Origin: an uncultured delta proteobacterium | GTDB lineage: Bacteria > Myxococcota_A > Polyangia > Polyangiales > Polyangiaceae | Assembly: GCA_903870415.1 (NCBI GenBank) | Contig: CAIQDA010000094.1 | Coordinates: forward strand, 1-62,290 | DNA length: 62,290 nt | Direction: 5' to 3' | In this document: piece by piece, positions 15,064 through 29,439 of the stretch | How positions within the stretch are numbered: the first letter of the stretch is position 1 | How the letters are laid out: the number at the start of each line of letters is the position of its first letter | The notes under the pieces: model-generated | The model's database searches: none | What the model was told of the DNA's origin: nothing | What the model saw: the letters and a program-made list of their open reading frames with translations, nothing else | Position numbers and translations under genes: made by a program

Positions 15064-16551
15064 TCAGCGCGTGAGCCAGCGTCCGTCTTTGAGCGTCATG
15101 AACGAGTAGGGGAAGATCCACTGGAGGCCGATGAACGCCCAGAACGCGTAGCCGACGCCGTAGATGAAGTCCGTGCCGCGCTCGGAGCGGAGCGCATACA
15201 GCGACTGGATAAGGGCTCCAACACCGAGGGTCACAGCAGCGCGTGCGAGGTCGACGGGTTGCGCCACGAAGTGCCGGGCCATGAGAGCGAACGCGAAGTA
15301 CGAGGCGGGGTACTGGATGAGTTCGAGGAGAATCTCGAAGGTCGGCCACCAGCGGTCTTGCTTGCGCCACGAGGTGCCGAGGATCGGAAGCATCACGAAA
15401 CCCTCGCGGATGTTGCCGCGCTCCCAGCGAAGCATCATGCGCGTGATGCGCTTGAAGTCCGTTGGCATGATGGTGCGAACAACTGCGTTCGCTTGGTACA
15501 CCGCGCGGTAGCCGCAGCGGAGAAGCCACGTGTTGAGCGCGCGGTCCTCACCGATGGTGCACGCCTCGCCGAGGAAGGTCTGCGTCGACCAGCTCTCGAG
15601 CACTTGGCGGATACCTGTCGTGCGGTAGGCCGAGAGAGCGCCCGGCGTGCACAGCACTGCGCCGAAGCGCGACTGGGCTGCACGAAGGAGGTCGAAGGTG
15701 ACGAAGAAGCGGGCCGAGAGCAGGCGCGTGAAGAGGTTCTCGTAACGATTGAGCACGAGGACTTTGCCTGCGACCGCGTGAATACGCTCGTCGAGAAGCA
15801 TTGGCGCCACGATGTTGCGGAGCGCGTCGGACTCAAGCTGCGAATCGCTGTCGACGGTGACGACAAAGTCGCCGGTGGCGCGCTCAAAACCCGTGCGAAG
15901 GGCCTCACGCTTGCCGCCGTTCTTGGCTTGCTTGATGGCGATGACGCGACCTGGGAAGGCGCGGGCAACGGCCTGAATGTGCTCCCACGTATCGTCGGTC
16001 GAACCGTCGTCGATCGCGAGGATTTCGAGGCGGTCGGCTGGGTAGCGGTTTTCAATGGCGCTCAAAAGCGACACGCGCACCATGGCACCCTCGTTGTACG
16101 CCGGGACGACCACCGTGAGCTTCGGAAGCTGCGCGTCGGACGGAGCCTGCACCGGGCGGTATCGCACGGCGAAGTACAGCGAGAGGACGAAGTACGCCAT
16201 CGCGCCGAGTCCCGAGAGCTGCCACACGAGCGCCGTCGGCGAGCTGAAGTCGAACCGTGGCGACTCGACGAAAAGCGGGTTTCGGTTGCGCGCGAAGGCG
16301 ACCGCGACCGCGGCCAGCAGGCAGAGCACGATGCTCCCCTTCGCAAAGAAGTCGAACCAGCGATTGCGTCGAGACTCGGAGGACGTGCCCGGGATGGCGA
16401 CGTGAATCACCGAGCGAAGGGCGGCCGTCTTCAGGGGAAGCGGCGTAACGCCCCTGTAGGGAAGGGGCTCTTCCATACGCAGGGCAGGGGTGCCGGAATC
16501 CACAAGGGACCCGGGGGTGTAACAAACCGAGGAAAAGGTGACCTCAGACAT
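15064..16551 (-). CDS. Processive membrane GT2 synthase of the hyaluronan-synthase / NodC / chitin-synthase type
   Basis: TVVVPAYNEG, AIDDGSTD, TVDSDS (DxD), GEDRALN, and a QxxRW-type motif MMLRWERGNIRE. TM segments flank the catalytic domain. 495 aa. Confidence 0.8.
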   Translation of the reverse strand: MSEVTFSSVCYTPGSLVDSGTPALRMEEPLPYRGVTPLPLKTAALRSVIHVAIPGTSSESRRNRWFDFFAKGSIVLCLLAAVAVAFARNRNPLFVESPRFDFSSPTALVWQLSGLGAMAYFVLSLYFAVRYRPVQAPSDAQLPKLTVVVPAYNEGAMVRVSLLSAIENRYPADRLEILAIDDGSTDDTWEHIQAVARAFPGRVIAIKQAKNGGKREALRTGFERATGDFVVTVDSDSQLESDALRNIVAPMLLDERIHAVAGKVLVLNRYENLFTRLLSARFFVTFDLLRAAQSRFGAVLCTPGALSAYRTTGIRQVLESWSTQTFLGEACTIGEDRALNTWLLRCGYRAVYQANAVVRTIMPTDFKRITRMMLRWERGNIREGFVMLPILGTSWRKQDRWWPTFEILLELIQYPASYFAFALMARHFVAQPVDLARAAVTLGVGALIQSLYALRSERGTDFIYGVGYAFWAFIGLQWIFPYSFMTLKDGRWLTR

Positions 16552-16642
16552 GGCGGCAGGGGTGAGACGCCAAGACGATGGCGGCTATTCAACGGCGTCG
16601 CCGATTTGCACAACTCCAGGCGAAGAACAACTTCGGCGGGCT

Positions 16643-16662
16643 CTTTCGGCACCTTTCGGCAC
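16643..16662. repeat. Perfect 2 x 10-bp tandem direct repeat CTTTCGGCAC
   Basis: Read directly in the 135-nt gap between the PIG-L stop and the GT2 start. Confidence 0.9.
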
Positions 16663-16686
16663 GCTCGCCCGCGCGGATGGCTGAAC

Positions 16687-18003
16687 CTACGGAACGCCTG
16701 CGCAGCTCGGGTCTTCGGAAATCACCGGCGGCGAAGCGAACGAGACCAGCCGACGCCCAAACGGACCGGCGTCGTCCGACAGGTCCAGGGTCGCAGCGCC
16801 GCGACCTTCAGGCACCCAAAAAACCCTGGTGACGCCCAGGCGAACGCCCTCGAAGCGACGCGTGAGCCGCTCGACCGGTGAGAAGTGGTGCAGCAAGATT
16901 TCGGACCCCGCGTCGCCCTTGTCCCGAAGGCAAAGTCGGTCGAATTCCCCCGCGGCATCGATGCGCAACCCCACGCCAGGGCGAAGCGAAACGGAGGTCG
17001 CCGCCGGCCACGCACGACGACCACGTCCGCGCGCGTCGATAGGAGGCTCGCTCGAAACGCGCGAATCGAAACAGCGGCGAGGTGCAGCGTCCGTGCAGTG
17101 AAAGGGGCTGCGGAAAAAAACCTCGTCGGAGCGAACGAAGGACTGAAGCCAGCTCGTTTCAGGCGCAGGCCCAAGCTGGGACGCATACGCGCCAAGGAGG
17201 CGGCTCATCAAACCGGGCGGCGAGTCGCTCCATTGGACACGCAGGTCGGGCACGTACCCCGCGAGCGCGCCCGGAAGCGGTGGCGTGGGGGCCATGGGCT
17301 GTCGTTCGCCCCGTGGACTTCCCGCGCGTGCGGGAGAGGGCCAGTCGTCACCGGAGTGGACCACGGAGAGGAGAACCTCGGGCTCCGCAATCGAGGCTTT
17401 TTCCAAGGCTCGGTACACGTAGCGGCCCGTAGCGGCGTGGTCCGGATGATCGTCCGAAAGGTGCGCGGTCACGATGCGACGCGGCCGGTAGCGGTCGAAA
17501 AGCCAGGCAAGGTCGGTGACCAGCGCATCGAGCTGATACGGGCTTTCATGACCCATACGCTGCATAGCCACCGTCTGCGTCGCGTCTTCCGCCATCGCGT
17601 AAGTGCCCGTGGCCTCCACGCACACCCCCGCGGCGTCGAGGCGCTTCGTGGGGGCGAGAGGCACGCGTCCGAGGCGATCAAGCGCGCCGTCTGGATAGCC
17701 GAGAAAGTGCACGCGTTGATGCTCAACACCCGCCATCGCAAGGGCATGAAGCGACTCGCGCTCGCGCACAAAGCCGCTTGTTCGACAGCCCCCATCGCCG
17801 TTCGTGAGGACCGCCACCACCACCGACTCGCCTCGAGCTCGCGCCTGCGCGATGAGAGCGCCGGCCATGATGACCTCGTCGTCCGGGTGCGTCGCGACGA
17901 CGAGAAGATCAACGCCCTCGAAAGCCGGCGAATGCGCGTGGCACGAGCCGACACTCGCGGCGGCCACGAGTCCGCAGAGGGCAATGGCTAGTTGTTTGGA
18001 CAC
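16687..18003 (-). CDS. PIG-L/LmbE-family (CAZy CE14-type) N-acetylglucosaminyl deacetylase, lipoprotein, with about 180-aa C-terminal domain of unknown function
   Basis: VVATHPDDEVIMAG and SDDHPDHAATG metal/catalytic motifs. I prefer GTG at 18003, which gives VSKQLAIALCGLVAAASVGSC (signal peptide plus Cys). The ORF track extends to 18147. Confidence 0.75.
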   Translation of the reverse strand: MSKQLAIALCGLVAAASVGSCHAHSPAFEGVDLLVVATHPDDEVIMAGALIAQARARGESVVVAVLTNGDGGCRTSGFVRERESLHALAMAGVEHQRVHFLGYPDGALDRLGRVPLAPTKRLDAAGVCVEATGTYAMAEDATQTVAMQRMGHESPYQLDALVTDLAWLFDRYRPRRIVTAHLSDDHPDHAATGRYVYRALEKASIAEPEVLLSVVHSGDDWPSPARAGSPRGERQPMAPTPPLPGALAGYVPDLRVQWSDSPPGLMSRLLGAYASQLGPAPETSWLQSFVRSDEVFFRSPFHCTDAAPRRCFDSRVSSEPPIDARGRGRRAWPAATSVSLRPGVGLRIDAAGEFDRLCLRDKGDAGSEILLHHFSPVERLTRRFEGVRLGVTRVFWVPEGRGAATLDLSDDAGPFGRRLVSFASPPVISEDPSCAGVP

Positions 18004-18431
18004 TCGCTCGCGCAGCTCGCGGTGATGCAATCGCCAAGGCCCTGCGTCGCCGCTTTGCACGTGTCGGTTGCGCCGGTGAGGCAGCCAAATGCGCACGTCG
18101 TGTCGGAGCTCGCGCAAGCGCAAATGCAGGAATACATGGCTTGGCACGCGCCGCCGTACTTGCTCGGGTCCGTGCCAAACGTCGCCTGGAGCTGGGTCTT
18201 GCAGTGCGCCACTTCACAGGCGACACACGCTTGCGGATCGGGCGTTCCCGCCGACGCGCCCGCGCACACAACCTGCGAGCCGCCGATGTCGGTCGTTCCA
18301 CCTGCCGCAGCGCCGCCGTCAGCCGTTCCGCCATCGGACGTGGTGCCGGACGCGGTGCCGGACGTGGTGCCGGAGCTCGAAGCACAAGCGGCGGTGAAAG
18401 CGGCGAGGAGGAGAACCGAAAACATGCGCAT
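17988..18431 (-). CDS. Cys-rich secreted lipoprotein (147 aa)
   Basis: MRMFSVLLLAAFTAAC lipobox, a Gly/Thr/Ser linker, then a domain with about 14 Cys (CVACEVAHC...CICAC...). Its 3' end overlaps the PIG-L start by 16 nt. Confidence 0.6.
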   Translation of the reverse strand: MRMFSVLLLAAFTAACASSSGTTSGTASGTTSDGGTADGGAAAGGTTDIGGSQVVCAGASAGTPDPQACVACEVAHCKTQLQATFGTDPSKYGGACQAMYSCICACASSDTTCAFGCLTGATDTCKAATQGLGDCITASCASECPNN

Positions 18432-18463: not shown

Positions 18464-19669
18464 TCAATCGCGCCACATCCCGACGGAGCCGCCGACGAAG
18501 CGGAAGCCCTTGTTGAAGTCGACGCCGAGCATTTTTCCACGCGAAAGCCTGACGAGGCAAAGAAGCGGCGCGGGCATGCCGCCCGGCTCGTCGCGAAGAA
18601 GCATGACCCGCACTTCGGCCTTCACCGTGCCACCGTCGGGTGCCTCGAAGGCATTCGCGTAGGTGATCTTTTCTTGCAGAATCCATCCACTTCGCTCGCC
18701 CACGGGAATCGCGTCGATGTCCGCTTGCGTGGGGTCGAGGATGACGCCCGCGCCCGCGAACGAGAAGAGCGGCTTCAGAACGTAGTCCCCCAGATTCCCT
18801 GGAATTTCCGAGACTTCATGAAGAAACGTCGCCTTGGGAACGGCGCGGTGGTTCACGTACGGAAGCGCGTACTTGGACCAGATCCAGTACCAGTTCGGGT
18901 GCGACGCCCACTCCACGTCGAGGTCGTCACCCCAAGCGAAGGGAGCGTTCAGGCCCTTCTTTTCGAGCTCGTCGAAGACCACCCGGTTGTAGATGCGCCT
19001 TACACGGACCCGCTCGCCGCTCGCATCGCGGCGGTAGAGGTTGCGCCCCTCGCGCTCGAGCTTGGTGATGCAGCACGACTCGACGCCGAAGAAGAGCCGC
19101 GTGGTCACGAAATCCGGGACGGTCTTCTGCTCCTCGGGCTCCACGTCGACGAGCACGACTTCGCGTGGATCATGGTCGCCCACGATCACGCGTCGCATTT
19201 GCTCAACAGCCTCGGCGCGCGTCTTTCCGTTGAACGGCGTCCACGGTCCTTCGAGCTCGGGAAACGCGTTGAGCTCGTCGGTCCACGCGCCGGCCATGAG
19301 CGTCATCATCGCGTAGAGCGACGGAAACGCCTGAAGCTCGACCACCCTGCCCTCGAATGTTCCGTCGGCATTCTCGACGACCGCGAAATCGACTTGGGCA
19401 CAGTCCGGCAGCGCGGGCTCACCGCGCACGTTGAAACGCTCGGGAACCGCTCCGCGCAGCTTCTCGAGGAGCGCCGGATCCGCGAGCTGTTCGACGATGG
19501 CGCTCGCGCTCGTGAACAAGAACTCGCGAAGCTCCTTCGAGATGAAAAACGGAGTCTCCGCGAGCTGGAACGGAATCGGCCCGACCTGATTCTCGAGACG
19601 CGTGCGGTACGAGGCGAAGAGTTCTTCGCTCCAGCGGGCATTGAAGAGAGCGCGTTCAGGCCGATTCAT
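18464..19669 (-). CDS. ATP-grasp-superfamily-like amidoligase (circularly permuted / glutathionylspermidine-synthetase-like); function unknown
   Basis: GAGGA before ATG 19669. QVDFAVVENADG...VVELQAFPS, RIYNRVVFDEL and YVLKPLFSFAGAGVIL blocks resemble CP-ATP-grasp proteins as recalled. Not verified. Confidence 0.45.
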   Translation of the reverse strand: MNRPERALFNARWSEELFASYRTRLENQVGPIPFQLAETPFFISKELREFLFTSASAIVEQLADPALLEKLRGAVPERFNVRGEPALPDCAQVDFAVVENADGTFEGRVVELQAFPSLYAMMTLMAGAWTDELNAFPELEGPWTPFNGKTRAEAVEQMRRVIVGDHDPREVVLVDVEPEEQKTVPDFVTTRLFFGVESCCITKLEREGRNLYRRDASGERVRVRRIYNRVVFDELEKKGLNAPFAWGDDLDVEWASHPNWYWIWSKYALPYVNHRAVPKATFLHEVSEIPGNLGDYVLKPLFSFAGAGVILDPTQADIDAIPVGERSGWILQEKITYANAFEAPDGGTVKAEVRVMLLRDEPGGMPAPLLCLVRLSRGKMLGVDFNKGFRFVGGSVGMWRD

Positions 19670-19700
19670 GGGTTCCTCGTGGACTCGCGGAAAGCGCGCA

Positions 19701-20903
19701 TCAGTGGTTTGGCTTGGCCGGCGCGGGAAGGACCGCGCTGATTTCGCCAGCGAATTTCCGCACAACAGCGTCACGCCGTACGCACATCTCTTCGTGGGTG
19801 TCGGCGACGACGACGAGACCCGCGTGGTAGTTTTCTTTCACTTCGTACGCGATGCCTTCGACGCCGAGTTTCTTGTAATCTACAGATTCCGTACGCGAGA
19901 GCGTGTTGATGAGCGCGCCCTGTTTGCGGAAGCCTGTCGGCGCGGTCCACGATTCGCCGCGCAGATGCGCGACCTCGAGTTCGGCCCAACCGGCCCACGG
20001 ATTGATGCCGCGAGTGCACTCGATGAGCTCCGCGATGTGCACGCCGCCGACCCTGGCGCCGGCCTCAAGAAAGTGAAACTCGCCCGACGCGCTCTTGATG
20101 TACTCGGCGTGGCACGAGCCGCGCTTCAGGCCGAGCGTCGGAATGAGCTTCTCGTTGAGCGCGAGCAGCGCGGTCTCATCGGCCGAACCCTCCGGCAACG
20201 TGAACGACGTGTAGATGCCGCCGCCGTGGGCCACCGTGAAGGGAGGCGTGCCGCACTGATGCGCCGCTGCGAACACGATGCGACCGTCGTCGACGAGGCT
20301 GTCCACGTGAAACACGTCGCCAGGCAGGAAACGCTCGAGCAGAAAGAACGAACGCTTGTCGCCTTGGCCGCGAAGAATGTCCCAAAGCTGCTGCTGGTTG
20401 TGAACCTTCGTGATGCCGACGGCGGACGCTTCCGAGCGTGGCTTGTGCATCCAGGGAGCGGGAACGCGCTCGCAAAACCGTGCGACCTCGTCGTCATGAA
20501 AAAGGCCCGTGAAATCCGGAACGGGAAGCCCCGCATCGCGCGCCGTGGTGCGCATGGCGAGCTTGTCGCGGAAGTTGCGGGCCGTCGAATCGCCCATGCC
20601 CGGCATGCGCAAGTGCTCGCGGATCATCGCTGCGGTTTCGACGTCGAAATCGTCAAGGGCCGCCACCGCATCGAAGGGCACGCTGCGCGACAAGTAGCTG
20701 ACCGTGTTGATCCAGTCTTCGCGCTTCGGTGCGTCGTGAAGGGCGAACACGTCCTGAAGCGAACCGCGCGGCCAAGGCTGCCGCAGCAGTTTTGCGAGCG
20801 TGAGCAGATACACTTTCGCGCCCTTCGCGGCCGCTTCGATCATGAAACGGTCGCCCTTGAAGTAGGACGCAATGCAGAGAATCGTCGGGGCTTCGTTTGC
20901 CAT
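19701..20903 (-). CDS. ATP-grasp carboxylate-amine ligase
   Basis: 400 aa. Pre-ATP-grasp N-terminus, KPRSEASAVGITKV, LLERFLPGDVFHVD, and FLEAGARVGG (E-x-x-x-R-x-G-G). Confidence 0.75.
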   Translation of the reverse strand: MANEAPTILCIASYFKGDRFMIEAAAKGAKVYLLTLAKLLRQPWPRGSLQDVFALHDAPKREDWINTVSYLSRSVPFDAVAALDDFDVETAAMIREHLRMPGMGDSTARNFRDKLAMRTTARDAGLPVPDFTGLFHDDEVARFCERVPAPWMHKPRSEASAVGITKVHNQQQLWDILRGQGDKRSFFLLERFLPGDVFHVDSLVDDGRIVFAAAHQCGTPPFTVAHGGGIYTSFTLPEGSADETALLALNEKLIPTLGLKRGSCHAEYIKSASGEFHFLEAGARVGGVHIAELIECTRGINPWAGWAELEVAHLRGESWTAPTGFRKQGALINTLSRTESVDYKKLGVEGIAYEVKENYHAGLVVVADTHEEMCVRRDAVVRKFAGEISAVLPAPAKPNH

Positions 20904-20920
20904 GGCTTGCCTTGTTGCTC

Positions 20921-22687
20921 TCAGTGAATCGGCTCGGTGCCGTGGAAGTTGTCGTAGTGGGCGATGGAGATGGTTCGACCGTCGGCCCAGCTTTCGCTCT
21001 TCGGCCCGAGCAGGTCGCGCGCGGCCTCGGAGAGAGGCCCCACCATGCGAAGCGCAAGCAGCTCGTCGACGTAACGGGCTCTCAAATCAAGGCCGTGAAA
21101 ACGGTGACCGCGGCGCACGCTCGCGCGAAACGGCTGGGCGCGCTGACGTGCCCACGCAAGCGCTTTGAGCGACGCGCGGTAGCCGTCAATTGCTGTGAGT
21201 TCGTCGCCTGGCGCGAGCCCCGCTTCGTAGGCGGGCGAGCCCTCGAGAACCTGCGCGACCACAAGCGAACCTTTGGGCTCAAGGAGAAAACCAAGGCGCG
21301 CGCGCGGCTTGCGCTCAACTTCGAACCCGAGGCTCTGGAGCGCGACCAACGTCTCAAGCGTTGCTGGCCGCCGCACCTTGCGCGCCACCCATCCCTCGAG
21401 CGCGGGAAAGCGCGCCTCGAGAAACGCTGCGAAGGCCGCGGTGTCGAAGCCGGGCTTGTTTTCGTATGCGTGATAAAATTCGGAAAACAACGCATCGAGC
21501 GACGAGCGGAACCGCGTGCGCAGAAGCGCGTCGAGCTCGAAGGCCACGAGCATTCCGCCGTCGTAGTAGTCGAGGGTCGCATTCCACGCGCCAGCCCAAC
21601 GCGTGTGATTCAAGAACGTGGCGAGCGACGAGTCGACGAGGGTCGTGTGCCGGTAAGCGGGGCGCACCGTGTGGTGCACGGAGAACGAGACCATGTTCTC
21701 GAGAAAGCGCGACGGCTCCATGAGGCCCGCGCGCACGAGAAGGAAGAACTCGTAATACCTTGTCACTCCCTCACACAGCCATAGCGCATCCGTGTACGAG
21801 CCCTCGGTTCGCGAAGGCTCACGGTACGCGTCGGGCCTGAGTCGCCACACATTCCACGCGTGAAAAAGTTCGTGCGCCGCAACGCGAAGCGCGCAGAAAC
21901 GCGCCTCTTCGTCGATGAAGGCGTCCTCGCCGATGGCGATCATGGTGCCGTGCGCGTGCTCAAGACCCCAGTGGTCGCGCGGGTCGAAGGAGATGATCCA
22001 CGTGTAGCGCTCGAACGGGAATGACCCGAACAGATCGTGGCAAGCCTCGGCGATGCGCACGAGCTCGTCGACGAAGCCTTCGACCTCGGCTTCAAACCCG
22101 ATCGCCTGTTGGCAAAAGACGTGTTCGAAACGGCACCCGCGCACCTGGCGAACGATGACCGTGGGCTCGCCGACAACCATGGGCGTGTCGAGCCATGCTT
22201 CGAACGAAGCAAAGCGATGGACGCGCGGATCTCGCGTCTTTTCCTCGACGCCGGCCACAAGAAGTTGACGTCCGTCGCCCACGTCGACCACGACGTCGAC
22301 GGGGCCGCGCCACTCGGCGGGCACAGGAAATGCGGTCGGCAAAAGGATGCCGCCGTCGTCGCGAAGAATTCCCGCGAGCTCGCCCCACGAGGCGTCGCGC
22401 GCTTGAACCGTCGCGGAGAAAAACACTGTCGAGAGGGTGCCGCCCGCAGGCGCGAGAATGCGAAAACGGCTCAGGCCTTCGCGTTCGATCACGAGCGGAG
22501 TTCCGTCGCCGCCCATCGCGGCGAGCGCGTAGAGGTCGCGGCCATAACGAAGGAACGCGTACGCTCCGGCGACCCACGTGGGCACCTCGAGAAGAAGCTC
22601 GGACACCTCGTTGAGGTCGTGCAGGTCGAGCGAAAGCTGCACCGCGCCCTGCCGGTCGACGCGCACGCGATAGAGGGGAGTTTCCAA
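20921..22687 (-). CDS. M61-family metallopeptidase (glycyl-aminopeptidase-like) with C-terminal PDZ domain
   Basis: AAHELFHAWNV (HExxH), the downstream EGVTRYYE, and PDZ (GSPAYEAGLAPGDELTAIDG). I prefer TTG at 22687, with GGAG 9 nt upstream and 1 nt after the preceding stop. The ORF track extends to 22795. Confidence 0.8.
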   Translation of the reverse strand: METPLYRVRVDRQGAVQLSLDLHDLNEVSELLLEVPTWVAGAYAFLRYGRDLYALAAMGGDGTPLVIEREGLSRFRILAPAGGTLSTVFFSATVQARDASWGELAGILRDDGGILLPTAFPVPAEWRGPVDVVVDVGDGRQLLVAGVEEKTRDPRVHRFASFEAWLDTPMVVGEPTVIVRQVRGCRFEHVFCQQAIGFEAEVEGFVDELVRIAEACHDLFGSFPFERYTWIISFDPRDHWGLEHAHGTMIAIGEDAFIDEEARFCALRVAAHELFHAWNVWRLRPDAYREPSRTEGSYTDALWLCEGVTRYYEFFLLVRAGLMEPSRFLENMVSFSVHHTVRPAYRHTTLVDSSLATFLNHTRWAGAWNATLDYYDGGMLVAFELDALLRTRFRSSLDALFSEFYHAYENKPGFDTAAFAAFLEARFPALEGWVARKVRRPATLETLVALQSLGFEVERKPRARLGFLLEPKGSLVVAQVLEGSPAYEAGLAPGDELTAIDGYRASLKALAWARQRAQPFRASVRRGHRFHGLDLRARYVDELLALRMVGPLSEAARDLLGPKSESWADGRTISIAHYDNFHGTEPIH

Positions 22688-22688
22688 C

Positions 22689-23447
22689 CTAAAACGCTCC
22701 CGCGACGGAAAAACCGAGCCCCATCGGCGCGATTGAAATCGCACGTGAGTCGCTCGTCGAGGCCGCAGGAACAGCTCCGCTCGCCGCTCGCGCAATGGAC
22801 CAGTTCTCTTCGAGGATGGAGACTTGACCCGGCAACTTCGCGAGCATCAACGCACGGACGGCAGCAGCCGCGGCACCGGCTCCGAAGCTGGCTCCGCGCA
22901 CCAAGCGCGACGTGGGCGAATCGCTCTCGGAGAGCGCTTCGTTCACCGCGAATCCCAAGAACAACGCGGACACGACACCCGACGTCCACGCGCCGACATC
23001 GCGCGCACTGCGCTCTTCCCGTGCGGCGATTTTCAACGTCACGTCGACGCGGTGCAACCGGTCAGGATCGCTTGGCGCACCCGGAATCGCGCGAACCTCT
23101 TCGGCCAAACGTTCAACGGGGTCGCTGCCAAAAAACGCGAACGGCGCCGACGCGAGCGTGATGATGCCCGAGCCAAGAAGCGCATACCCGGCCGCGCGTC
23201 CGCTCGTGTCGGTGCTCGGCGTTCCGTCAAGAACGGCCTGGCCACAAGCGGCCAACGCCGCACCAGCCACGAGGCCACCAACGGCTTGAATGCGACGCTC
23301 AACGCCTGCCCGCGAGGCTGCGTTCTCGATCATGGCGTCGAGGGATGGACCTTCGGCGAAGGCCGGCCCTGCGGCGACGAAGACGAGAGCGGCAGCCCGC
23401 GCGGACAGACGAGCGATCACGCGATCACCAGCCCTGTAGACGCTCAC
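22689..23447 (-). CDS. Hypothetical membrane/secreted protein
   Basis: Ala/Gly-rich with about 4 hydrophobic segments. Alternative GTG at 23420 gives the signal-like VIARLSARAAALVFVAAGPAFA and removes the 23-nt overlap with the esterase gene. Confidence 0.5.
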   Translation of the reverse strand: MSVYRAGDRVIARLSARAAALVFVAAGPAFAEGPSLDAMIENAASRAGVERRIQAVGGLVAGAALAACGQAVLDGTPSTDTSGRAAGYALLGSGIITLASAPFAFFGSDPVERLAEEVRAIPGAPSDPDRLHRVDVTLKIAAREERSARDVGAWTSGVVSALFLGFAVNEALSESDSPTSRLVRGASFGAGAAAAAVRALMLAKLPGQVSILEENWSIARAASGAVPAASTSDSRAISIAPMGLGFSVAGAF

Positions 23448-24249
23448 CGACGACGAGCGGGAGCATGCGACGCCACCAAACCCAGTCGTGGTTCACGTCC
23501 CAGCCCCAAACGTCGAGGTTGCACGGAATGCCCTTCGCCGCGAGCTTCGAGGCGAAGCGGCGCGAGGCGTCGGGAAGTTCGTAGTCGCCCTGACCGGTCA
23601 GGATGTTGATCTGCGTGTGGTTTCGCAGCAGATCAAGACCGTGGCTCTCGGGCAACTGGGGGACGTACACCCCAGGGTTGTTGTAGTATACATTGTCGTC
23701 CGAATACCCCTTGAGGTAGTAGTCGCCGAGCTCGTAGAAGCCGCTCATCGCGATGAGCGAGTCGAACATGTCCGGGCGACGGAAGACGGCGTTGGCGGCG
23801 TGGAACGCACCGAAGCTCGCGCCTGCGGTGCCGATACGCGCGTTCGGATTGCCGAGTTCGCGCCGGATGTGCGGAACGACTTCTTCTTCGATGTAGCCGC
23901 TGAAGAGCGCCTGACGGCGGGCCTTCTCGGGTACCGGCACATCACGCTTCATCCACGAAATGTCGTTGATGGTGTTGATGCAGAATACAGAGATTCTTCG
24001 GTCGTGGATCAAGTGCTCGATGGCCTTGATCAGGAAGAAGCGCTCGCAGTCGTACAGGTCGCTCTGGGCCGTCGGAAAGAGGAGAAGGGCGCGGCCCCAA
24101 TTACCGTACCGCACGATGGGCATGTGCATCCCCAGGCGCGGGGAGTGCCAGCCGAACTCTTGTTTCGGTGTCGATGGATCGATGAATTGCACAGTCTCAC
24201 CTCGGTGAAGGCGGCAGAATACGCGAGCCAGCGGAAAGCGCGTGTCCAT
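23425..24249 (-). CDS. Alpha/beta-hydrolase 'putative esterase' family protein
   Basis: GxSxG nucleophile elbow (GASFGAF). General resemblance to esterase D / enterochelin-esterase-type proteins. I prefer the start at MDTRF (24249). Confidence 0.65.
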   Translation of the reverse strand: MDTRFPLARVFCRLHRGETVQFIDPSTPKQEFGWHSPRLGMHMPIVRYGNWGRALLLFPTAQSDLYDCERFFLIKAIEHLIHDRRISVFCINTINDISWMKRDVPVPEKARRQALFSGYIEEEVVPHIRRELGNPNARIGTAGASFGAFHAANAVFRRPDMFDSLIAMSGFYELGDYYLKGYSDDNVYYNNPGVYVPQLPESHGLDLLRNHTQINILTGQGDYELPDASRRFASKLAAKGIPCNLDVWGWDVNHDWVWWRRMLPLVVGERLQGW

Positions 24250-24349: not shown

Positions 24350-24847
24350 TCAGCCTTCGTCGCTTTGGGGGTCGACGATCGGAACGTGGAAGCACGCAAG
24401 TCTTTCGGTCACTGCGGCGCGAAGGGCTTCGTCGTCGGCGGTCGCGGGCAACTCGAATGGAGAGCCGTCGAACTGCACGAGCACGACGCGGGAGCCGTCG
24501 AGAAACGCGCCGCGAAGCTCTGCGAAGTACGCGGTGTGAACCCGCGGCATACCGAGCGCGTTCGAGGTCCGCGCGGTGATGCGATCGTCGTCCACCACGA
24601 CTCCGGCAAGACGACCGCGAGCCCATGTGCCGGCGCCCGTGACGATGAGCAACGCGCCAAAGATCTTCGGAGCAAGCGCGTCCGGGTTGCCGCGAAGCAA
24701 GCGCGCCACGCTCGGCGACACGAGCCCTCGATCGGCGAGCAACACGAGAACCCCGACCGATGCGAAGAGCAGAAACCACGCGAGCGAGAGGAGCTGCGCA
24801 TAGAGCGGCGCGTGCAGATGACGGCGCTTGAACGTGGCCCCGGTCAC
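24350..24847 (-). CDS. Membrane protein, two TM segments plus soluble (PH-like?) C-terminal domain
   Basis: 165 aa. LLSLAWFLLFASVGVLVLL and IFGALLIVTGAG segments. The GTG start overlaps the upstream stop (GTGA at 24844-24847). Confidence 0.55.
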   Translation of the reverse strand: MTGATFKRRHLHAPLYAQLLSLAWFLLFASVGVLVLLADRGLVSPSVARLLRGNPDALAPKIFGALLIVTGAGTWARGRLAGVVVDDDRITARTSNALGMPRVHTAYFAELRGAFLDGSRVVLVQFDGSPFELPATADDEALRAAVTERLACFHVPIVDPQSDEG

Positions 24848-26193
24848 GTGGGCCTTACGCTTGTTCGGTTTTCATCGCGCTTCGCTTCGCGGCGCTCCTC
24901 GCGCAAGAGAGCGATTTCGCTCTTCGACGGGTTGACGATGAAGAGGCCGTGGTCGGCGTCAACGAGCGCCAAGTCACCGTCCGACGCCCAGCGAAAGACG
25001 CCGGTGACGTCGATGAGCGACGGCTTGCCGAGCAGCTCAAGCAGCACTTTCGTGCGCGGACCTTGCGCGCGTTCGCTGAGGACGAAGGCCACGGGTTCCG
25101 CATGCGCCGAGACCAGCAAGTCGAAGACACCGATGTTGTCCCCAACGAGAACCGCCTTCGATGGCACCCGCGCACGAGGGTCTTCGGCGGCGATCATGAC
25201 GAGCGCGTCGCAAAGATCTTCGATGTCTTTTGCACGCTCTTCGAGGAACGAATCGCGCGCGAACGCCGTGGCTGCACGTGTCGCCAAACGGGCCACGGAC
25301 AAGAGCGCTTTCGCGATGGGTTCGCCCTTCGCAACCTCGTCGAGAGCCACGTCACGCAACCGCGCGTCGGACAGAATCAGCGCGTAGGTTTCGAGGAATG
25401 CCGCGCCCTCGGTGAGGGAGAGTTCACGCGCGCGGCCCTGCCACCTTGTCACGAGGCGCGCAGCGTCGTCGAACGCGGTCTTCAACCGCTTTGCTTCGTC
25501 TTTCGCCGAGGCTTCCACTTTGCGTTTCGGCGCGTGCGCGGCCGGACGCCGCATCGCCGCCATGGCCCCCATGACGCGACCAAGCACGACAGGGCGCCCC
25601 GTCAACGTCACTTTGCGCGTGCCCCCGCCGGCACTGCGCGTCGCCGCTCGCTCACGCTGCCTGTCGATGAGCTCCGCCTGACGAACATACCCCGCGACGA
25701 TGGATCCGATCGCGCACGCGAGTTCCACGTCGGCTTTCGCGAACGCAGGTGCTTCGCGCTGAACGACGATGGCGCCAAGCGCTCCGTTCTTTCCAAGAAT
25801 CGGGACCGCGAGGAAGGCCGGGTAGCGCTCTTCGCCAAGGGTTCCAAAGTGCTTGTAGGCTGCATGCGATTGCGCGAGCTCGGCGGAGATCGGCCTCAAG
25901 TACTCAACGGCCTTTCCCGTGATGCCCTCGCCAACGTTGAGGCGCACCTGGCCGATGGCCTTCGAGGTGAACCCCACGTTGCCGCGCATGACGAGCTCTT
26001 GCCCGTCGCCTTCGACGAGGTAGACCGAGCAAACGGCTGCACCGAAAAGCTTGGCGAAGCGTCGCGGCAAATCGTCGAGCAAGCGCACGAGCGGCATCGG
26101 CGTCGCCGCGAACGACAAGAGTTCGAGGAGCTCGTCGAGGCGCGCATCCCCTTTGGCGTAGACGTGCGGCACACTCTCCGAAGGCCCGTTCAT
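24844..26193 (-). CDS. GAF domain + PTS Enzyme-I N-terminal region (PtsP-like) lacking the PEP-binding C-terminal domain
   Basis: GAF block (GEGITGKAV...FLAVPIL). EI-N blocks FLETYALILSDARLRDVALDEV and FLEERAKDIEDL match E. coli PtsP as recalled. The protein ends after the swivel-domain region at 449 aa. Confidence 0.7.
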   Translation of the reverse strand: MNGPSESVPHVYAKGDARLDELLELLSFAATPMPLVRLLDDLPRRFAKLFGAAVCSVYLVEGDGQELVMRGNVGFTSKAIGQVRLNVGEGITGKAVEYLRPISAELAQSHAAYKHFGTLGEERYPAFLAVPILGKNGALGAIVVQREAPAFAKADVELACAIGSIVAGYVRQAELIDRQRERAATRSAGGGTRKVTLTGRPVVLGRVMGAMAAMRRPAAHAPKRKVEASAKDEAKRLKTAFDDAARLVTRWQGRARELSLTEGAAFLETYALILSDARLRDVALDEVAKGEPIAKALLSVARLATRAATAFARDSFLEERAKDIEDLCDALVMIAAEDPRARVPSKAVLVGDNIGVFDLLVSAHAEPVAFVLSERAQGPRTKVLLELLGKPSLIDVTGVFRWASDGDLALVDADHGLFIVNPSKSEIALLREERREAKRDENRTSVRPT

Positions 26194-28600: not shown

Positions 28601-28788
28601 TGGCTTGATTCCTTGGCTTCGCCGTTGCCGCCGCCACCGATGGCGTCCTCGGTTTTCGAGAGTCTTATTCGCTCTCCCAGCGTGACCCCGGGCGGCGCGG
28701 CGATCCTCCGCTCCTCCCCCAAACCGTGCCCCCGGGGTTGCATCTGGTTTCCGCGGAAATTCGCAGCGGTTCTGCTATTCTCTCGCGC

Positions 28789-29439
28789 GTGCAACCGTCG
28801 CTTGTTCTCCATGGTTACTGGCGCTCGTCGTCCGCATACCGGGTCCGCATCGCTCTCGAACTCAAGGGGCTCCGCTATCGGCAGGAGCCTGTGAACCTGC
28901 TTCACGGCGAGCACGTGAGCGACACGCATCGCGCGCGCAATCCTTCGGGATACGTGCCCGCGCTCGATGTGGAAGGCGCCACCCTCGTCGAGTCGGTGGC
29001 CATTCTCGAGTGGCTCGAGGAGGCTTTTCCATCGCCTGCGCTCTTGCCTCACGCGCTCCTTGATCGCGCCCATGTGCGCGCGCTCGTCGAGATCATCAAC
29101 GCGGGCACGCAGCCGCTCCAAAACCTGTGGGTGCTCAAGCAGCTCTTTCCAGGCGACGCGGACCAGGCGGCGAAAATGGCGTGGGCACGTCAGGTCATGG
29201 GCAAGGGTCTTGGCGCCTTCGAAGAACTCCTCGCGCGACGTGACGCCGGAGCTCCCTTTTGCTTCGGCACCCACCCCACCTACGCCGACGTCATGCTCGT
29301 GCCGCAGCTCTACAACGCCCGGCGCTTTGGAGTTGATCTCGAGCCTTTTCCAAGGATTCGCCGCGCGGAAGTCGCGTGCGCGGAGCTTGACGCCTTCAAG
29401 CGCGCCCACCCGGACGTGCAGCCCGACGCCAAGCCGTGA
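28789..29439 (+). CDS. maiA: Maleylacetoacetate isomerase (zeta-class GST)
   Basis: LHGYWRSSSAYRVRIALELKG zeta-GST signature. GTG at 28789 is preferred over the listed 28726. Confidence 0.85.
   Translation: MQPSLVLHGYWRSSSAYRVRIALELKGLRYRQEPVNLLHGEHVSDTHRARNPSGYVPALDVEGATLVESVAILEWLEEAFPSPALLPHALLDRAHVRALVEIINAGTQPLQNLWVLKQLFPGDADQAAKMAWARQVMGKGLGAFEELLARRDAGAPFCFGTHPTYADVMLVPQLYNARRFGVDLEPFPRIRRAEVACAELDAFKRAHPDVQPDAKP

Follow-up and report, generated by a model that had tools for sequence, protein, structure and literature searches.

What is made, or unmade, by an operon that combines two unlike ATP-grasp-type ligases with a peptidase, an esterase and a membrane protein? Such an operon lies in contig CAIQDA010000094.1 of assembly GCA_903870415.1, from an uncultured delta proteobacterium of the Polyangiaceae. 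The whole stretch analysed, 62,290 nucleotides, is called the window. A preliminary description of this DNA had placed two different ATP-grasp ligases beside an M61 peptidase with a PDZ domain, a membrane protein and an esterase, and all five open reading frames (ORFs) exist on the minus strand, at the coordinates given there or close to them (Table 1). In the order of transcription they encode the esterase, the membrane protein, the M61 peptidase, and the ligases P2 and P1. P1 is predicted from its structural model to represent a new family, so far without a profile model, in the GSS/GspS-like branch of circularly permuted ATP-grasp enzymes. By analogy with characterised ligases, the operon may make and turn over a short peptide or peptide-amine conjugate, independently of the ribosome and of non-ribosomal peptide synthetases (NRPSs). 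We give this reading a probability of roughly 45%.

The five genes are co-directional and tightly packed, with no junction exceeding 31 nt. The stop codon of the esterase gene overlaps the start of the membrane ORF, whose own stop is separated by 1 nt from the TTG start of the M61 gene. The gaps between M61 and P2 and between P2 and P1 measure 17 and 31 nt, respectively. Independent gene calls on near-identical contigs (97% identity at P2) return the same five genes, with products of 236, 214, 581, 400, and 401 residues. These contigs are metagenome assemblies, and the named relatives of the window are metagenome-assembled genomes of Myxococcota. The G+C content of the window is 64–67%.

Some of the starts need adjustment. 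The ORFs and the P1 motifs quoted in the preliminary description are correct, except that the likeliest start of the M61 gene is a TTG codon at 22687 and not the position 22795. The membrane ORF may begin at 23447, 23420, or about 23333, yielding a product of 214–252 residues. The esterase begins at 24249, or at about 24135 if the independent call of 236 residues is right. The codon-position signal of the membrane ORF is weaker (G+C at third positions 0.71), yet a 214-residue gene is called on the 97%-identical contigs, and a homologue of 58% identity occupies the same position in the related locus L001.

A scan for promoters and terminators was uninformative, yielding no promoter-like site and terminator-like sites at background level only. 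The tRNA and Rfam scans of the whole window gave no match. No room for a small ORF is seen in the 1–31-nt gaps of the window operon, where no dedicated small-ORF search was made, and with no visible room for a precursor gene there, a cluster for a graspetide or another ribosomally synthesised and post-translationally modified peptide is unlikely. In a simple hydropathy scan, P1, P2, the M61 peptidase, and the esterase display neither a hydrophobic N-terminus nor a transmembrane segment, which suggests that the ligases and the hydrolases probably share one compartment.

The fold of P1 was reached through structure prediction only, as sequence searches were empty. P1 has no match in Pfam, even at E ≤ 10, or in NCBIfam, and no PDB sequence is found by phmmer or with a profile of 40 family members. 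An AlphaFold2 (AF2) model computed on 40 sequences has a predicted local distance difference test score (pLDDT) of 93.1 and a predicted template modelling score of 0.92. A Foldseek search of the PDB with this model retrieves 17 chains at E ≤ 0.001, with template modelling scores (TM) of 0.48–0.65, and all are circularly permuted ATP-grasp enzymes. The matches with E-values of 1.5e-12 to 8e-7 include 3n6x, glutathione synthetases, YgiC/YjfC, GspS, and Cp1B. The best E-value (1.5e-12) belongs to 3n6x, deposited as a 'putative glutathionylspermidine synthase', and the glutathione synthetases, from human, yeast, soybean, and nematode, reach a TM of up to 0.65. Classical ATP-grasp enzymes (LysX, PurT, PurK, and Ddl) match the model at E-values of 0.4–2 only. 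The predicted structure thus bears out the earlier suggestion that this gene product is a permuted or GspS-like ATP-grasp protein.

Sequence comparisons within the family point in the same direction. Among 37 diverse family members, sub-threshold Pfam matches occur to GSP_synth in 14, to CP_ATPgrasp_2 in six, and to CP_ATPgrasp_1 in one, with best E-values of 1.1e-4 (PF03738) and 1.7e-4 (PF14403). Neither P1 nor these relatives attain the gathering threshold of GSP_synth (PF03738), CP_ATPgrasp_1/2 (PF04174, PF14403), or GSH_synth_ATP. Alignment of the P1 family to the single E. coli YgiC sequence by hhalign gives a local match of 30% probability. It pairs HPNWYWIWSKYALP...YVLKPLFSFAGAGV of P1, a block that includes HPNWYW, with EPAWKSIISNKALLP...YVVKPIFSREGANV of YgiC, and in this weak match the block around K299 of P1 aligns with the VVKP block of YgiC.

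The motifs of P1 comprise VDFAV at residue 93, VELQAF at residue 110, RIYNRVVFDEL, and VLKPLFSFAGAGV at residue 297. Residues that remain invariant down to about 30% identity include D94, E111, Q113, K266, K299, E352, R354, and R374. Judged from the family alignment, these are the residues expected to bind ATP and Mg. D94 and E111-x-Q113 precede K299-P300 and G306/G308, which is the permuted order. The putative acidic metal strand (residues 111–113) reads E-L-Q, and its Gln is invariant across the family; the equivalent site of classical and GspS-type ATP-grasp enzymes is presumably E-x-N. Because of the fold, the weak Pfam matches of the family, the YgiC alignment, and the permuted motif order, we place P1 in the GSS/GspS-like permuted branch, as a predicted new family.

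The family is large. Databases contain at least 7,934 relatives of P1, and all those with a name are labelled 'hypothetical protein'. In a library of 1.84 billion proteins, the family makes up 952 clusters at 50% identity, and its members occur in 389 GTDB species representatives from at least four phyla. P1 proteins of Myxococcota and Acidobacteriota share 51–59% identity, and about 130 columns are invariant in 40 sequences. Five distant relatives carry additional segments: four have an N-terminal extension and one a symporter fusion (P0133, P0137, P0168, P0186, and P0131). The extensions consist of a signal peptide and an Ala-rich region of about 150–190 residues ahead of the P1 domain, an arrangement that would put an ATP-dependent ligase fold outside the cytoplasm. 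The fusion partner is a sodium:solute symporter (PF00474).

P2 bears no detectable sequence similarity to P1. It was previously described as a canonical ATP-grasp ligase, and so it appears: it scores 28.1 bits against ATP-grasp_4 (PF13535; cut-off 27) and 26.1 bits, just below the cut-off of 27, against ATPgrasp_N (PF18130). Its closest solved relatives are the L-amino-acid ligases 4wd3 (E 4e-17) and 3vot (E 5e-10), which rank ahead of Ddl; a further PDB match is 30vh (E 3e-8). The motif order is classical, with HKP at residue 152 followed by the C-terminal acidic motif HFLEAGAR at residue 277. No NCBIfam equivalog reaches its cut-off, the best being PRK02186 with 44 bits against 625. Identification as a D-Ala-D-Ala ligase or PurK is rejected, as the scores fall far under the cut-offs (Ddl 35 bits against 243), and so is identification as DdaF (19 bits against 840) or BacD (18 against 850). 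A cyanophycin synthetase/cyanophycinase system is likewise rejected, with 14 bits against 877 for CphA and no S51 peptidase. Given its nearest solved relatives and the large distance to every equivalog cut-off, P2 is best typed as an L-amino-acid-ligase-type enzyme and not as a well-characterised housekeeping ligase.

The M61 peptidase matches PF05299 with 88.9 bits, the M61 N-domain PF17899 with 29.1, and PDZ_6 with 31.8. Its alignment with PDB entry 4fgm (E 1e-29) extends across the PDZ domain, and it carries HELFH at residue 272, in keeping with the HExxH motif of the M61 (glycyl aminopeptidase) family. The hydropathy scan, the only method used here, detected no signal peptide and no hydrophobic N-terminus. 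The membrane protein combines a signal-like N-terminus with four hydrophobic segments and matches no family. The esterase scores 28.1 bits against PF00756 (cut-off 22) and also matches PF00326. It contains GASFG, of the GxSxG nucleophile pattern, at residue 143, and S145, H254, and D255 are invariant. Its AF2 model has a pLDDT of 91, and the Foldseek matches are 5vol, 7l0a, 7yvt, 3fcx, and Ag85C, at E-values of 1e-13 to 1e-11 and TM of 0.65–0.69. These structural neighbours comprise feruloyl esterases, S-formylglutathione hydrolases (esterase D), and antigen 85. The protein is accordingly assigned to the esterase D/S-formylglutathione hydrolase/feruloyl esterase group (PF00756) as a predicted hydrolase.

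Conserved gene order was examined in 81 genome loci, from 80 GTDB species and Pendulispora brunnea, with family-specific tblastn and HMM (hidden Markov model) searches. P1 is directly preceded by P2 in 23 other loci, and the order M61-P2-P1 is found in 13. The esterase, M61, P2, and P1 occur together in eight species-level genomes besides the window, so that the co-occurrence expected by the preliminary description extends beyond this genome. In seven of these eight loci, identity to the window proteins is 55–59% for P1, 48–53% for P2, 39–43% for M61, and 57–67% for the esterase. The slot of the membrane ORF is taken in most of these loci by a protein of about 330 residues, named X, whose best sub-threshold matches are RimK/LysX (TIGR00768, E 8e-9) and Ddl. 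In Pendulispora brunnea, the genes for the esterase, X, P2, and P1 form a tight operon from which M61 is missing.

The esterase is the commonest partner of P1 in Myxococcota. The two are arranged as esterase-P1, P1-esterase, esterase-X-P1, or esterase-X-(M61)-P2-P1. In three loci, a PGM1-like ATP-grasp peptide ligase (PF24923 and PF18105) sits directly upstream of esterase-P1, replacing P2 and M61. In about 20 myxobacterial loci, a convergent cluster encoding GCS2 (NF010039, above its cut-off), a paralogue of X, and the GATase1-like protein C4 lies beside P1. A divergent S8 subtilase gene adjoins this cluster as a conserved neighbour, and its product has, as judged by eye, no obvious N-terminal signal peptide.

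P1 stands alone in about 43 of the 81 loci, including those of Polyangium, Chondromyces, and Minicystis. Solitary P1 genes are neighboured by genes for acyl-CoA dehydrogenase, rhomboid, ClpA/ClpS, and glycogen phosphorylase. Such loci, together with the lack of any product or regulator that connects the genes, would be expected if a peptidase, an esterase, and two ligases were unrelated housekeeping genes that merely happen to be adjacent and co-directional. The gene order is nevertheless kept at 40–67% protein identity in the eight species-level genomes, and sub-sets of it in more than 30; the junctions overlap or nearly so; and the esterase is linked to P1 in four different arrangements and also in distant phyla. 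We regard chance adjacency as very improbable.

The wider relationships of P1 were traced in a metagenome scan seeded with family members of 28–46% identity. The named members from the seed search belong to Spirosomataceae, Leadbetterella, and Phycisphaerales, and thus to Cytophagales and Phycisphaerales. The scan yielded 80 loci (L083-L162) of 31–62% G+C, which carry no taxonomic assignment. A co-linear order of five genes emerges from these distant loci, namely esterase, X (RimK-like), GCS2, C4 (GATase1-like), and P1. C4 directly precedes P1 in 52 of the 80 loci, many of which are on incomplete contigs; 23 loci have GCS2, 15 have X, and about 12 have the esterase.

A six-frame translation of the window gives no match to hidden Markov models of C4, GCS2, or X, while the esterase model built from the distant operons matches the window esterase with an E-value of 3e-26. 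The window therefore contains a derived operon, in which the esterase and P1 are kept at the two ends and X-GCS2-C4 are replaced by the membrane protein, M61, and P2. The three latter genes are lineage-specific additions. The family-wide partners of P1 are the esterase and the GATase1-like, GCS2, and RimK-like proteins, the last three of which are absent from the window. The pairing of genes noted in the preliminary description is thus real in that the four genes co-occur, but M61, P2, and the membrane protein are not general partners of P1.

C4 has about 280 residues and an intact Cys-His-Glu triad within the invariant C103-H104-S105 and H206-P207-E208. Its profile weakly matches class-I GATase folds, among them MetA (2vdj, E 3e-3), 3l7n, and domains of GMP and CTP synthases. 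P1 might on this basis be the synthetase half of a glutamine-dependent amidoligase, comparable to CarB with CarA or MurT with GatD, in which ammonia from C4 turns an activated carboxylate into a carboxamide. The position of C4, often within a few bases of P1 in the distant loci, and its invariant motifs would suit such a pair, and in the window free ammonia or a glutaminase encoded elsewhere would have to serve P1. The P1 genes of the window, L001, and Pendulispora have no C4 nearby, however, and the C4 gene of Myxococcota sits in the separate convergent cluster. GATase1-like proteins may equally be gamma-glutamyl hydrolases or acyltransferases, and the best PDB match of C4 is an acyltransferase. 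An amidoligase of this kind seems quite improbable to us.

For the chemistry, the order of the steps, and each of the substrates, we propose the following scheme, working from the folds, motifs, operon structure, and conserved synteny. By analogy with RizA-type L-amino-acid ligases, P2 would link two amino-acid-like substrates by way of an acyl phosphate. P1 would then activate a carboxylate of the P2 product, again by an acyl-phosphate route, and couple a further amine, such as an amino acid or a polyamine. The characterised structural neighbours of P1 (glutathione synthetase, GspS, YgiC/YjfC, and Cp1B) all ligate small carboxylates to amines. YgiC and YjfC are peptide-spermidine ligases that act on peptide C-termini, in the account of Pederick 2023 given in PMC12568646. 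The apparently cytoplasmic M61 peptidase and the esterase-D-like hydrolase would act on the product or its (thio)ester derivatives, whether for degradation, editing, or recycling, and the small membrane protein may contribute to export or localisation.

The ligase that accompanies esterase-P1 differs by lineage, being RimK-like, L-amino-acid-ligase-like, or PGM1-like. This is the pattern expected if the ligase content sets the product. A small-peptide product is favoured because of this swapping of ligases, the presence of GCS2 and the GATase1-like protein in the ancestral operon, and the symporter fusion of one family member. That the operon is a peptide or peptide-tag system, as the preliminary description proposed, is still something that we infer.

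The ligases could instead modify a macromolecule. They would then attach residues or an amine to a protein or peptide of ribosomal origin, either at its C-terminus or on an acidic side chain, and the M61 peptidase, the esterase, and, in other genomes, the S8 protease would remove or process the addition. RimK acting on ribosomal protein S6, tubulin-tyrosine ligases on tubulin, and PGM1 on peptides offer models. Several of the partners fit such tagging or tailing: the best, sub-threshold NCBIfam matches of X are RimK and LysX (TIGR00768, E 8e-9), the PGM1-like peptide ligase adjoins esterase-P1, the S8 protease, which by eye has no obvious N-terminal signal peptide, is a conserved neighbour, and, by the account cited above, the YgiC/YjfC neighbours of P1 work on peptide C-termini. 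A further structural neighbour, 3n6x, is presumably of the type found in the Anbu operon. For that operon a tagging role has been proposed (PMC6376114). The very high conservation of P1 would also suit a conserved macromolecular substrate. The PDZ domain of the M61 peptidase is a module that binds C-terminal peptides, but it is a standard part of M61 peptidases, as the alignment of 4fgm across it illustrates, and is for this reason not specific evidence for tagging. No candidate small ORF was seen in the operon gaps of the window; in the related loci, where neighbour clustering took ORFs of at least 60–90 residues and shorter precursor genes would escape, no search aimed at a precursor or target gene was made. 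Free amino acids, moreover, are the substrates of the relatives of P2, and small-molecule metabolism is the usual setting of partners like GCS2, the GATase1-like protein, and the esterase-D-like hydrolase. We consider a tagging function unlikely.

Several observations weigh against the formation and turnover of a short peptide or conjugate as the function of the operon. The window lacks C4, the gene directly upstream of P1 in most of the distant loci, and P1 is solitary in about half of the genome loci. Neither a regulator nor a recognisable exporter is present with the operon. The RimK/LysX-like and PGM1-like ligases, the PDZ-bearing M61 peptidase, and the S8 protease would fit peptide or protein substrates equally well. 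The unusual conservation of P1, as gauged from the alignments, looks more like that of core metabolism or of an enzyme with a protein partner than that of variable secondary metabolism.

A broader form of the small-peptide reading would make the P1 family the signature enzyme of an undiscovered, widespread pathway. With the esterase-D-like, RimK/GshB-like, GCS2, and GATase1-like proteins, P1 would produce a new glutathione-like peptide, peptide amide, or peptide-polyamine conjugate, for instance a low-molecular-weight thiol, in Myxococcota, Acidobacteriota, Bacteroidota, and Planctomycetota. In the lineage of the window, the peptide-building half would have been swapped for an L-amino-acid ligase and M61, giving a different product. 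We put this forward as a tentative and rather doubtful extension.

Further genes flank the operon (Table 1). Downstream of P1, the minus strand encodes a Cys-rich lipoprotein, a PIG-L/LmbE deacetylase, and a NodC-like glycosyltransferase of family GT2 (15064-18430). The three look like a module for synthesis and deacetylation of a chito-oligosaccharide or a polymer of the poly-N-acetylglucosamine type. They accompany P1 only in the closest relatives of the window (L001 and L163), and we reject them as part of the system. Upstream of the esterase lie genes for a 449-residue GAF and PEP-utilisers_N protein and a 165-residue product. The similarity of the 449-residue protein to PtsP (EI-Ntr) is confined to the N-terminal half (profile positions 16–407 of 748), and the protein therefore lacks the catalytic domains for the use of phosphoenolpyruvate. 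The stop codon of its gene overlaps by 4 nt the start of the 165-residue ORF, which encodes two hydrophobic segments, matches no family, and ends about 100 nt upstream of the esterase. A gene for a glutathione S-transferase (GST_N and GST_C) is located 4.5 kb from the cluster and suggests that glutathione or a related thiol is in use in this organism. The other neighbours are housekeeping genes, which encode a PilB-like ATPase, a DEAD-box helicase, YaeQ, a BrkB/YihY-type protein, and an Omp85-type protein; UvrC, GlmS, and PdxJ are apparently present as well, as judged from N-terminal sequence only.

Table 1. Positions of the operon genes, of flanking genes in the window, and of genes in related loci.
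Feature	Position	Strand	Basis or remark
P1, predicted circularly permuted ATP-grasp fold, unannotated family, 401 residues	18464..19669	-	AF2 and Foldseek
P2, classical ATP-grasp, L-amino-acid-ligase type, 400 residues	19701..20903	-	Pfam and PDB sequence matches
M61 metallo-aminopeptidase with C-terminal PDZ	20921..22687	-	Pfam, PDB 4fgm, HELFH
Small Ala/Gly-rich membrane or exported protein, family unassigned	22689..23447 (start uncertain)	-	Hydropathy, conservation
Serine alpha/beta-hydrolase, esterase D/FrmB/feruloyl-esterase type	23425..24249 (start uncertain)	-	Pfam, AF2, Foldseek
Cys-rich lipoprotein	17988-18430	-	33 nt after P1; present in L001 too
PIG-L/LmbE-family deacetylase	16687 to ~18000	-	Signal or lipobox-like N-terminus
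NodC/chitin-synthase-like GT2	15064-16551	-	TIGR04242 E 2e-50, below cut-off
GAF and PEP-utilisers_N protein, then 165-residue ORF	24350-26193	-	
Glutathione S-transferase	28726-29439	+	
Five-gene distant operon (examples)	L100 4030-9191; L141 1169-6220		
PGM1-like ligase beside esterase-P1	L015 2164-3732; L021 7661-9235; L025 3-1640		
Convergent GCS2-X-C4 cluster	L002-L018, L028, L032, L053, L078; ~1-6 kb downstream of P1		Not in window

The significance of the locus lies in P1, a large and highly conserved family that neither Pfam nor NCBIfam models. The present analysis provides it with a predicted fold (permuted ATP-grasp), a probable chemistry (acyl-phosphate-mediated amide formation), and a conserved set of partners, so that a hitherto anonymous family becomes a pathway open to testing. 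For every step of glutathione and glutathionylspermidine metabolism there is a similar protein among the partners, which makes the system a candidate source of an abundant but undescribed peptide metabolite in bacteria of soil and fresh water. That ligases are exchanged between lineages suggests a naturally combinatorial assembly of peptides that dispenses with NRPSs and could serve biocatalysis. If the operon belongs to an ordinary salvage route, the gain is better annotation only. We found no description of the P1 family, its cluster, or the five-gene operon in the literature; a similar neighbourhood may be predicted in the amidoligase survey of Iyer et al. 2009.

Comparison with known systems begins with the GspS, YgiC, and YjfC enzymes, which share the permuted fold with P1 (Foldseek 7uk8, E 2e-11; 2io7, E 4e-10; 7uk6, E 1e-9). 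YgiC also shares with P1 the motif block P.W....SK..LP ... YV.KP.FS..G.GV, and the enzymes are of similar size (about 390–400 residues). The structural identity between this family and P1 is 12–18%, however, all P1 members stay below the Pfam gathering score, and the genomic partners of P1 are entirely different. A synthetase/amidase fusion like GspS is rejected, as P1 has 401 residues without a CHAP or other extra domain and the hydrolases are separate proteins.

Glutathione synthetases of the eukaryotic type (human 2hgs/8fbz, yeast 1m0w, and soybean hGSHS 3kaj) also have the permuted fold, and 8fbz gives the highest TM (0.65). In many genomes P1 is linked to GCS2, a glutamate-cysteine-ligase-like protein, whereas the window contains no GCS2. 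P1 differs from these synthetases in length (401 versus about 470 residues), shares 12–13% identity with them, and has no match to the Pfam GSH_synth models. The parallel to glutathione metabolism extends to the whole ancestral operon, whose partners have counterparts there in gamma-GCS-like, GshB/RimK-like, and GSS/GspS-like ligases, in a gamma-glutamyl-hydrolase- or glutaminase-like protein, and in an S-formylglutathione-hydrolase-like esterase. Drawn by analogy, this parallel is a lead and not a result.

PDB entry 3n6x is, we presume, a permuted ATP-grasp enzyme of the Anbu-operon type. The Anbu operon contains such a ligase within a set of ligases and hydrolases, and a tagging role has been proposed for it (PMC6376114). 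The Anbu-type enzyme and P1 are both uncharacterised ligases in ligase-plus-hydrolase operons, and the CP_ATPgrasp_2 model is weakly matched by the six P1-family members mentioned above. An Anbu-type operon is rejected nonetheless: no alpha-E, transglutaminase-like, or Anbu gene was found near P1 in the window or in 160 related loci with clustered neighbours, of which selected neighbours only were scanned against Pfam.

Stand-alone ATP-grasp peptide pathways, represented by RizA, BacD, DdaF (dapdiamide), Cp1B (E-64), and PGM1 (pheganomycin), follow the same logic of successive ATP-grasp ligations without an NRPS. P2 is nearest to the RizA-type ligases, and P1 structurally matches the fungal E-64 ligase Cp1B (9cjn, E 3e-10). 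The window operon differs from antibiotic clusters in having none of their typical tailoring enzymes, resistance gene, or exporter, and in both conservation and spread the P1 family far exceeds what is typical of enzymes of secondary metabolism. In kind, ligase-hydrolase amidoligase operons built on ATP-grasp enzymes are already known; what is new here is the family at the centre, which has had neither a model nor a name.

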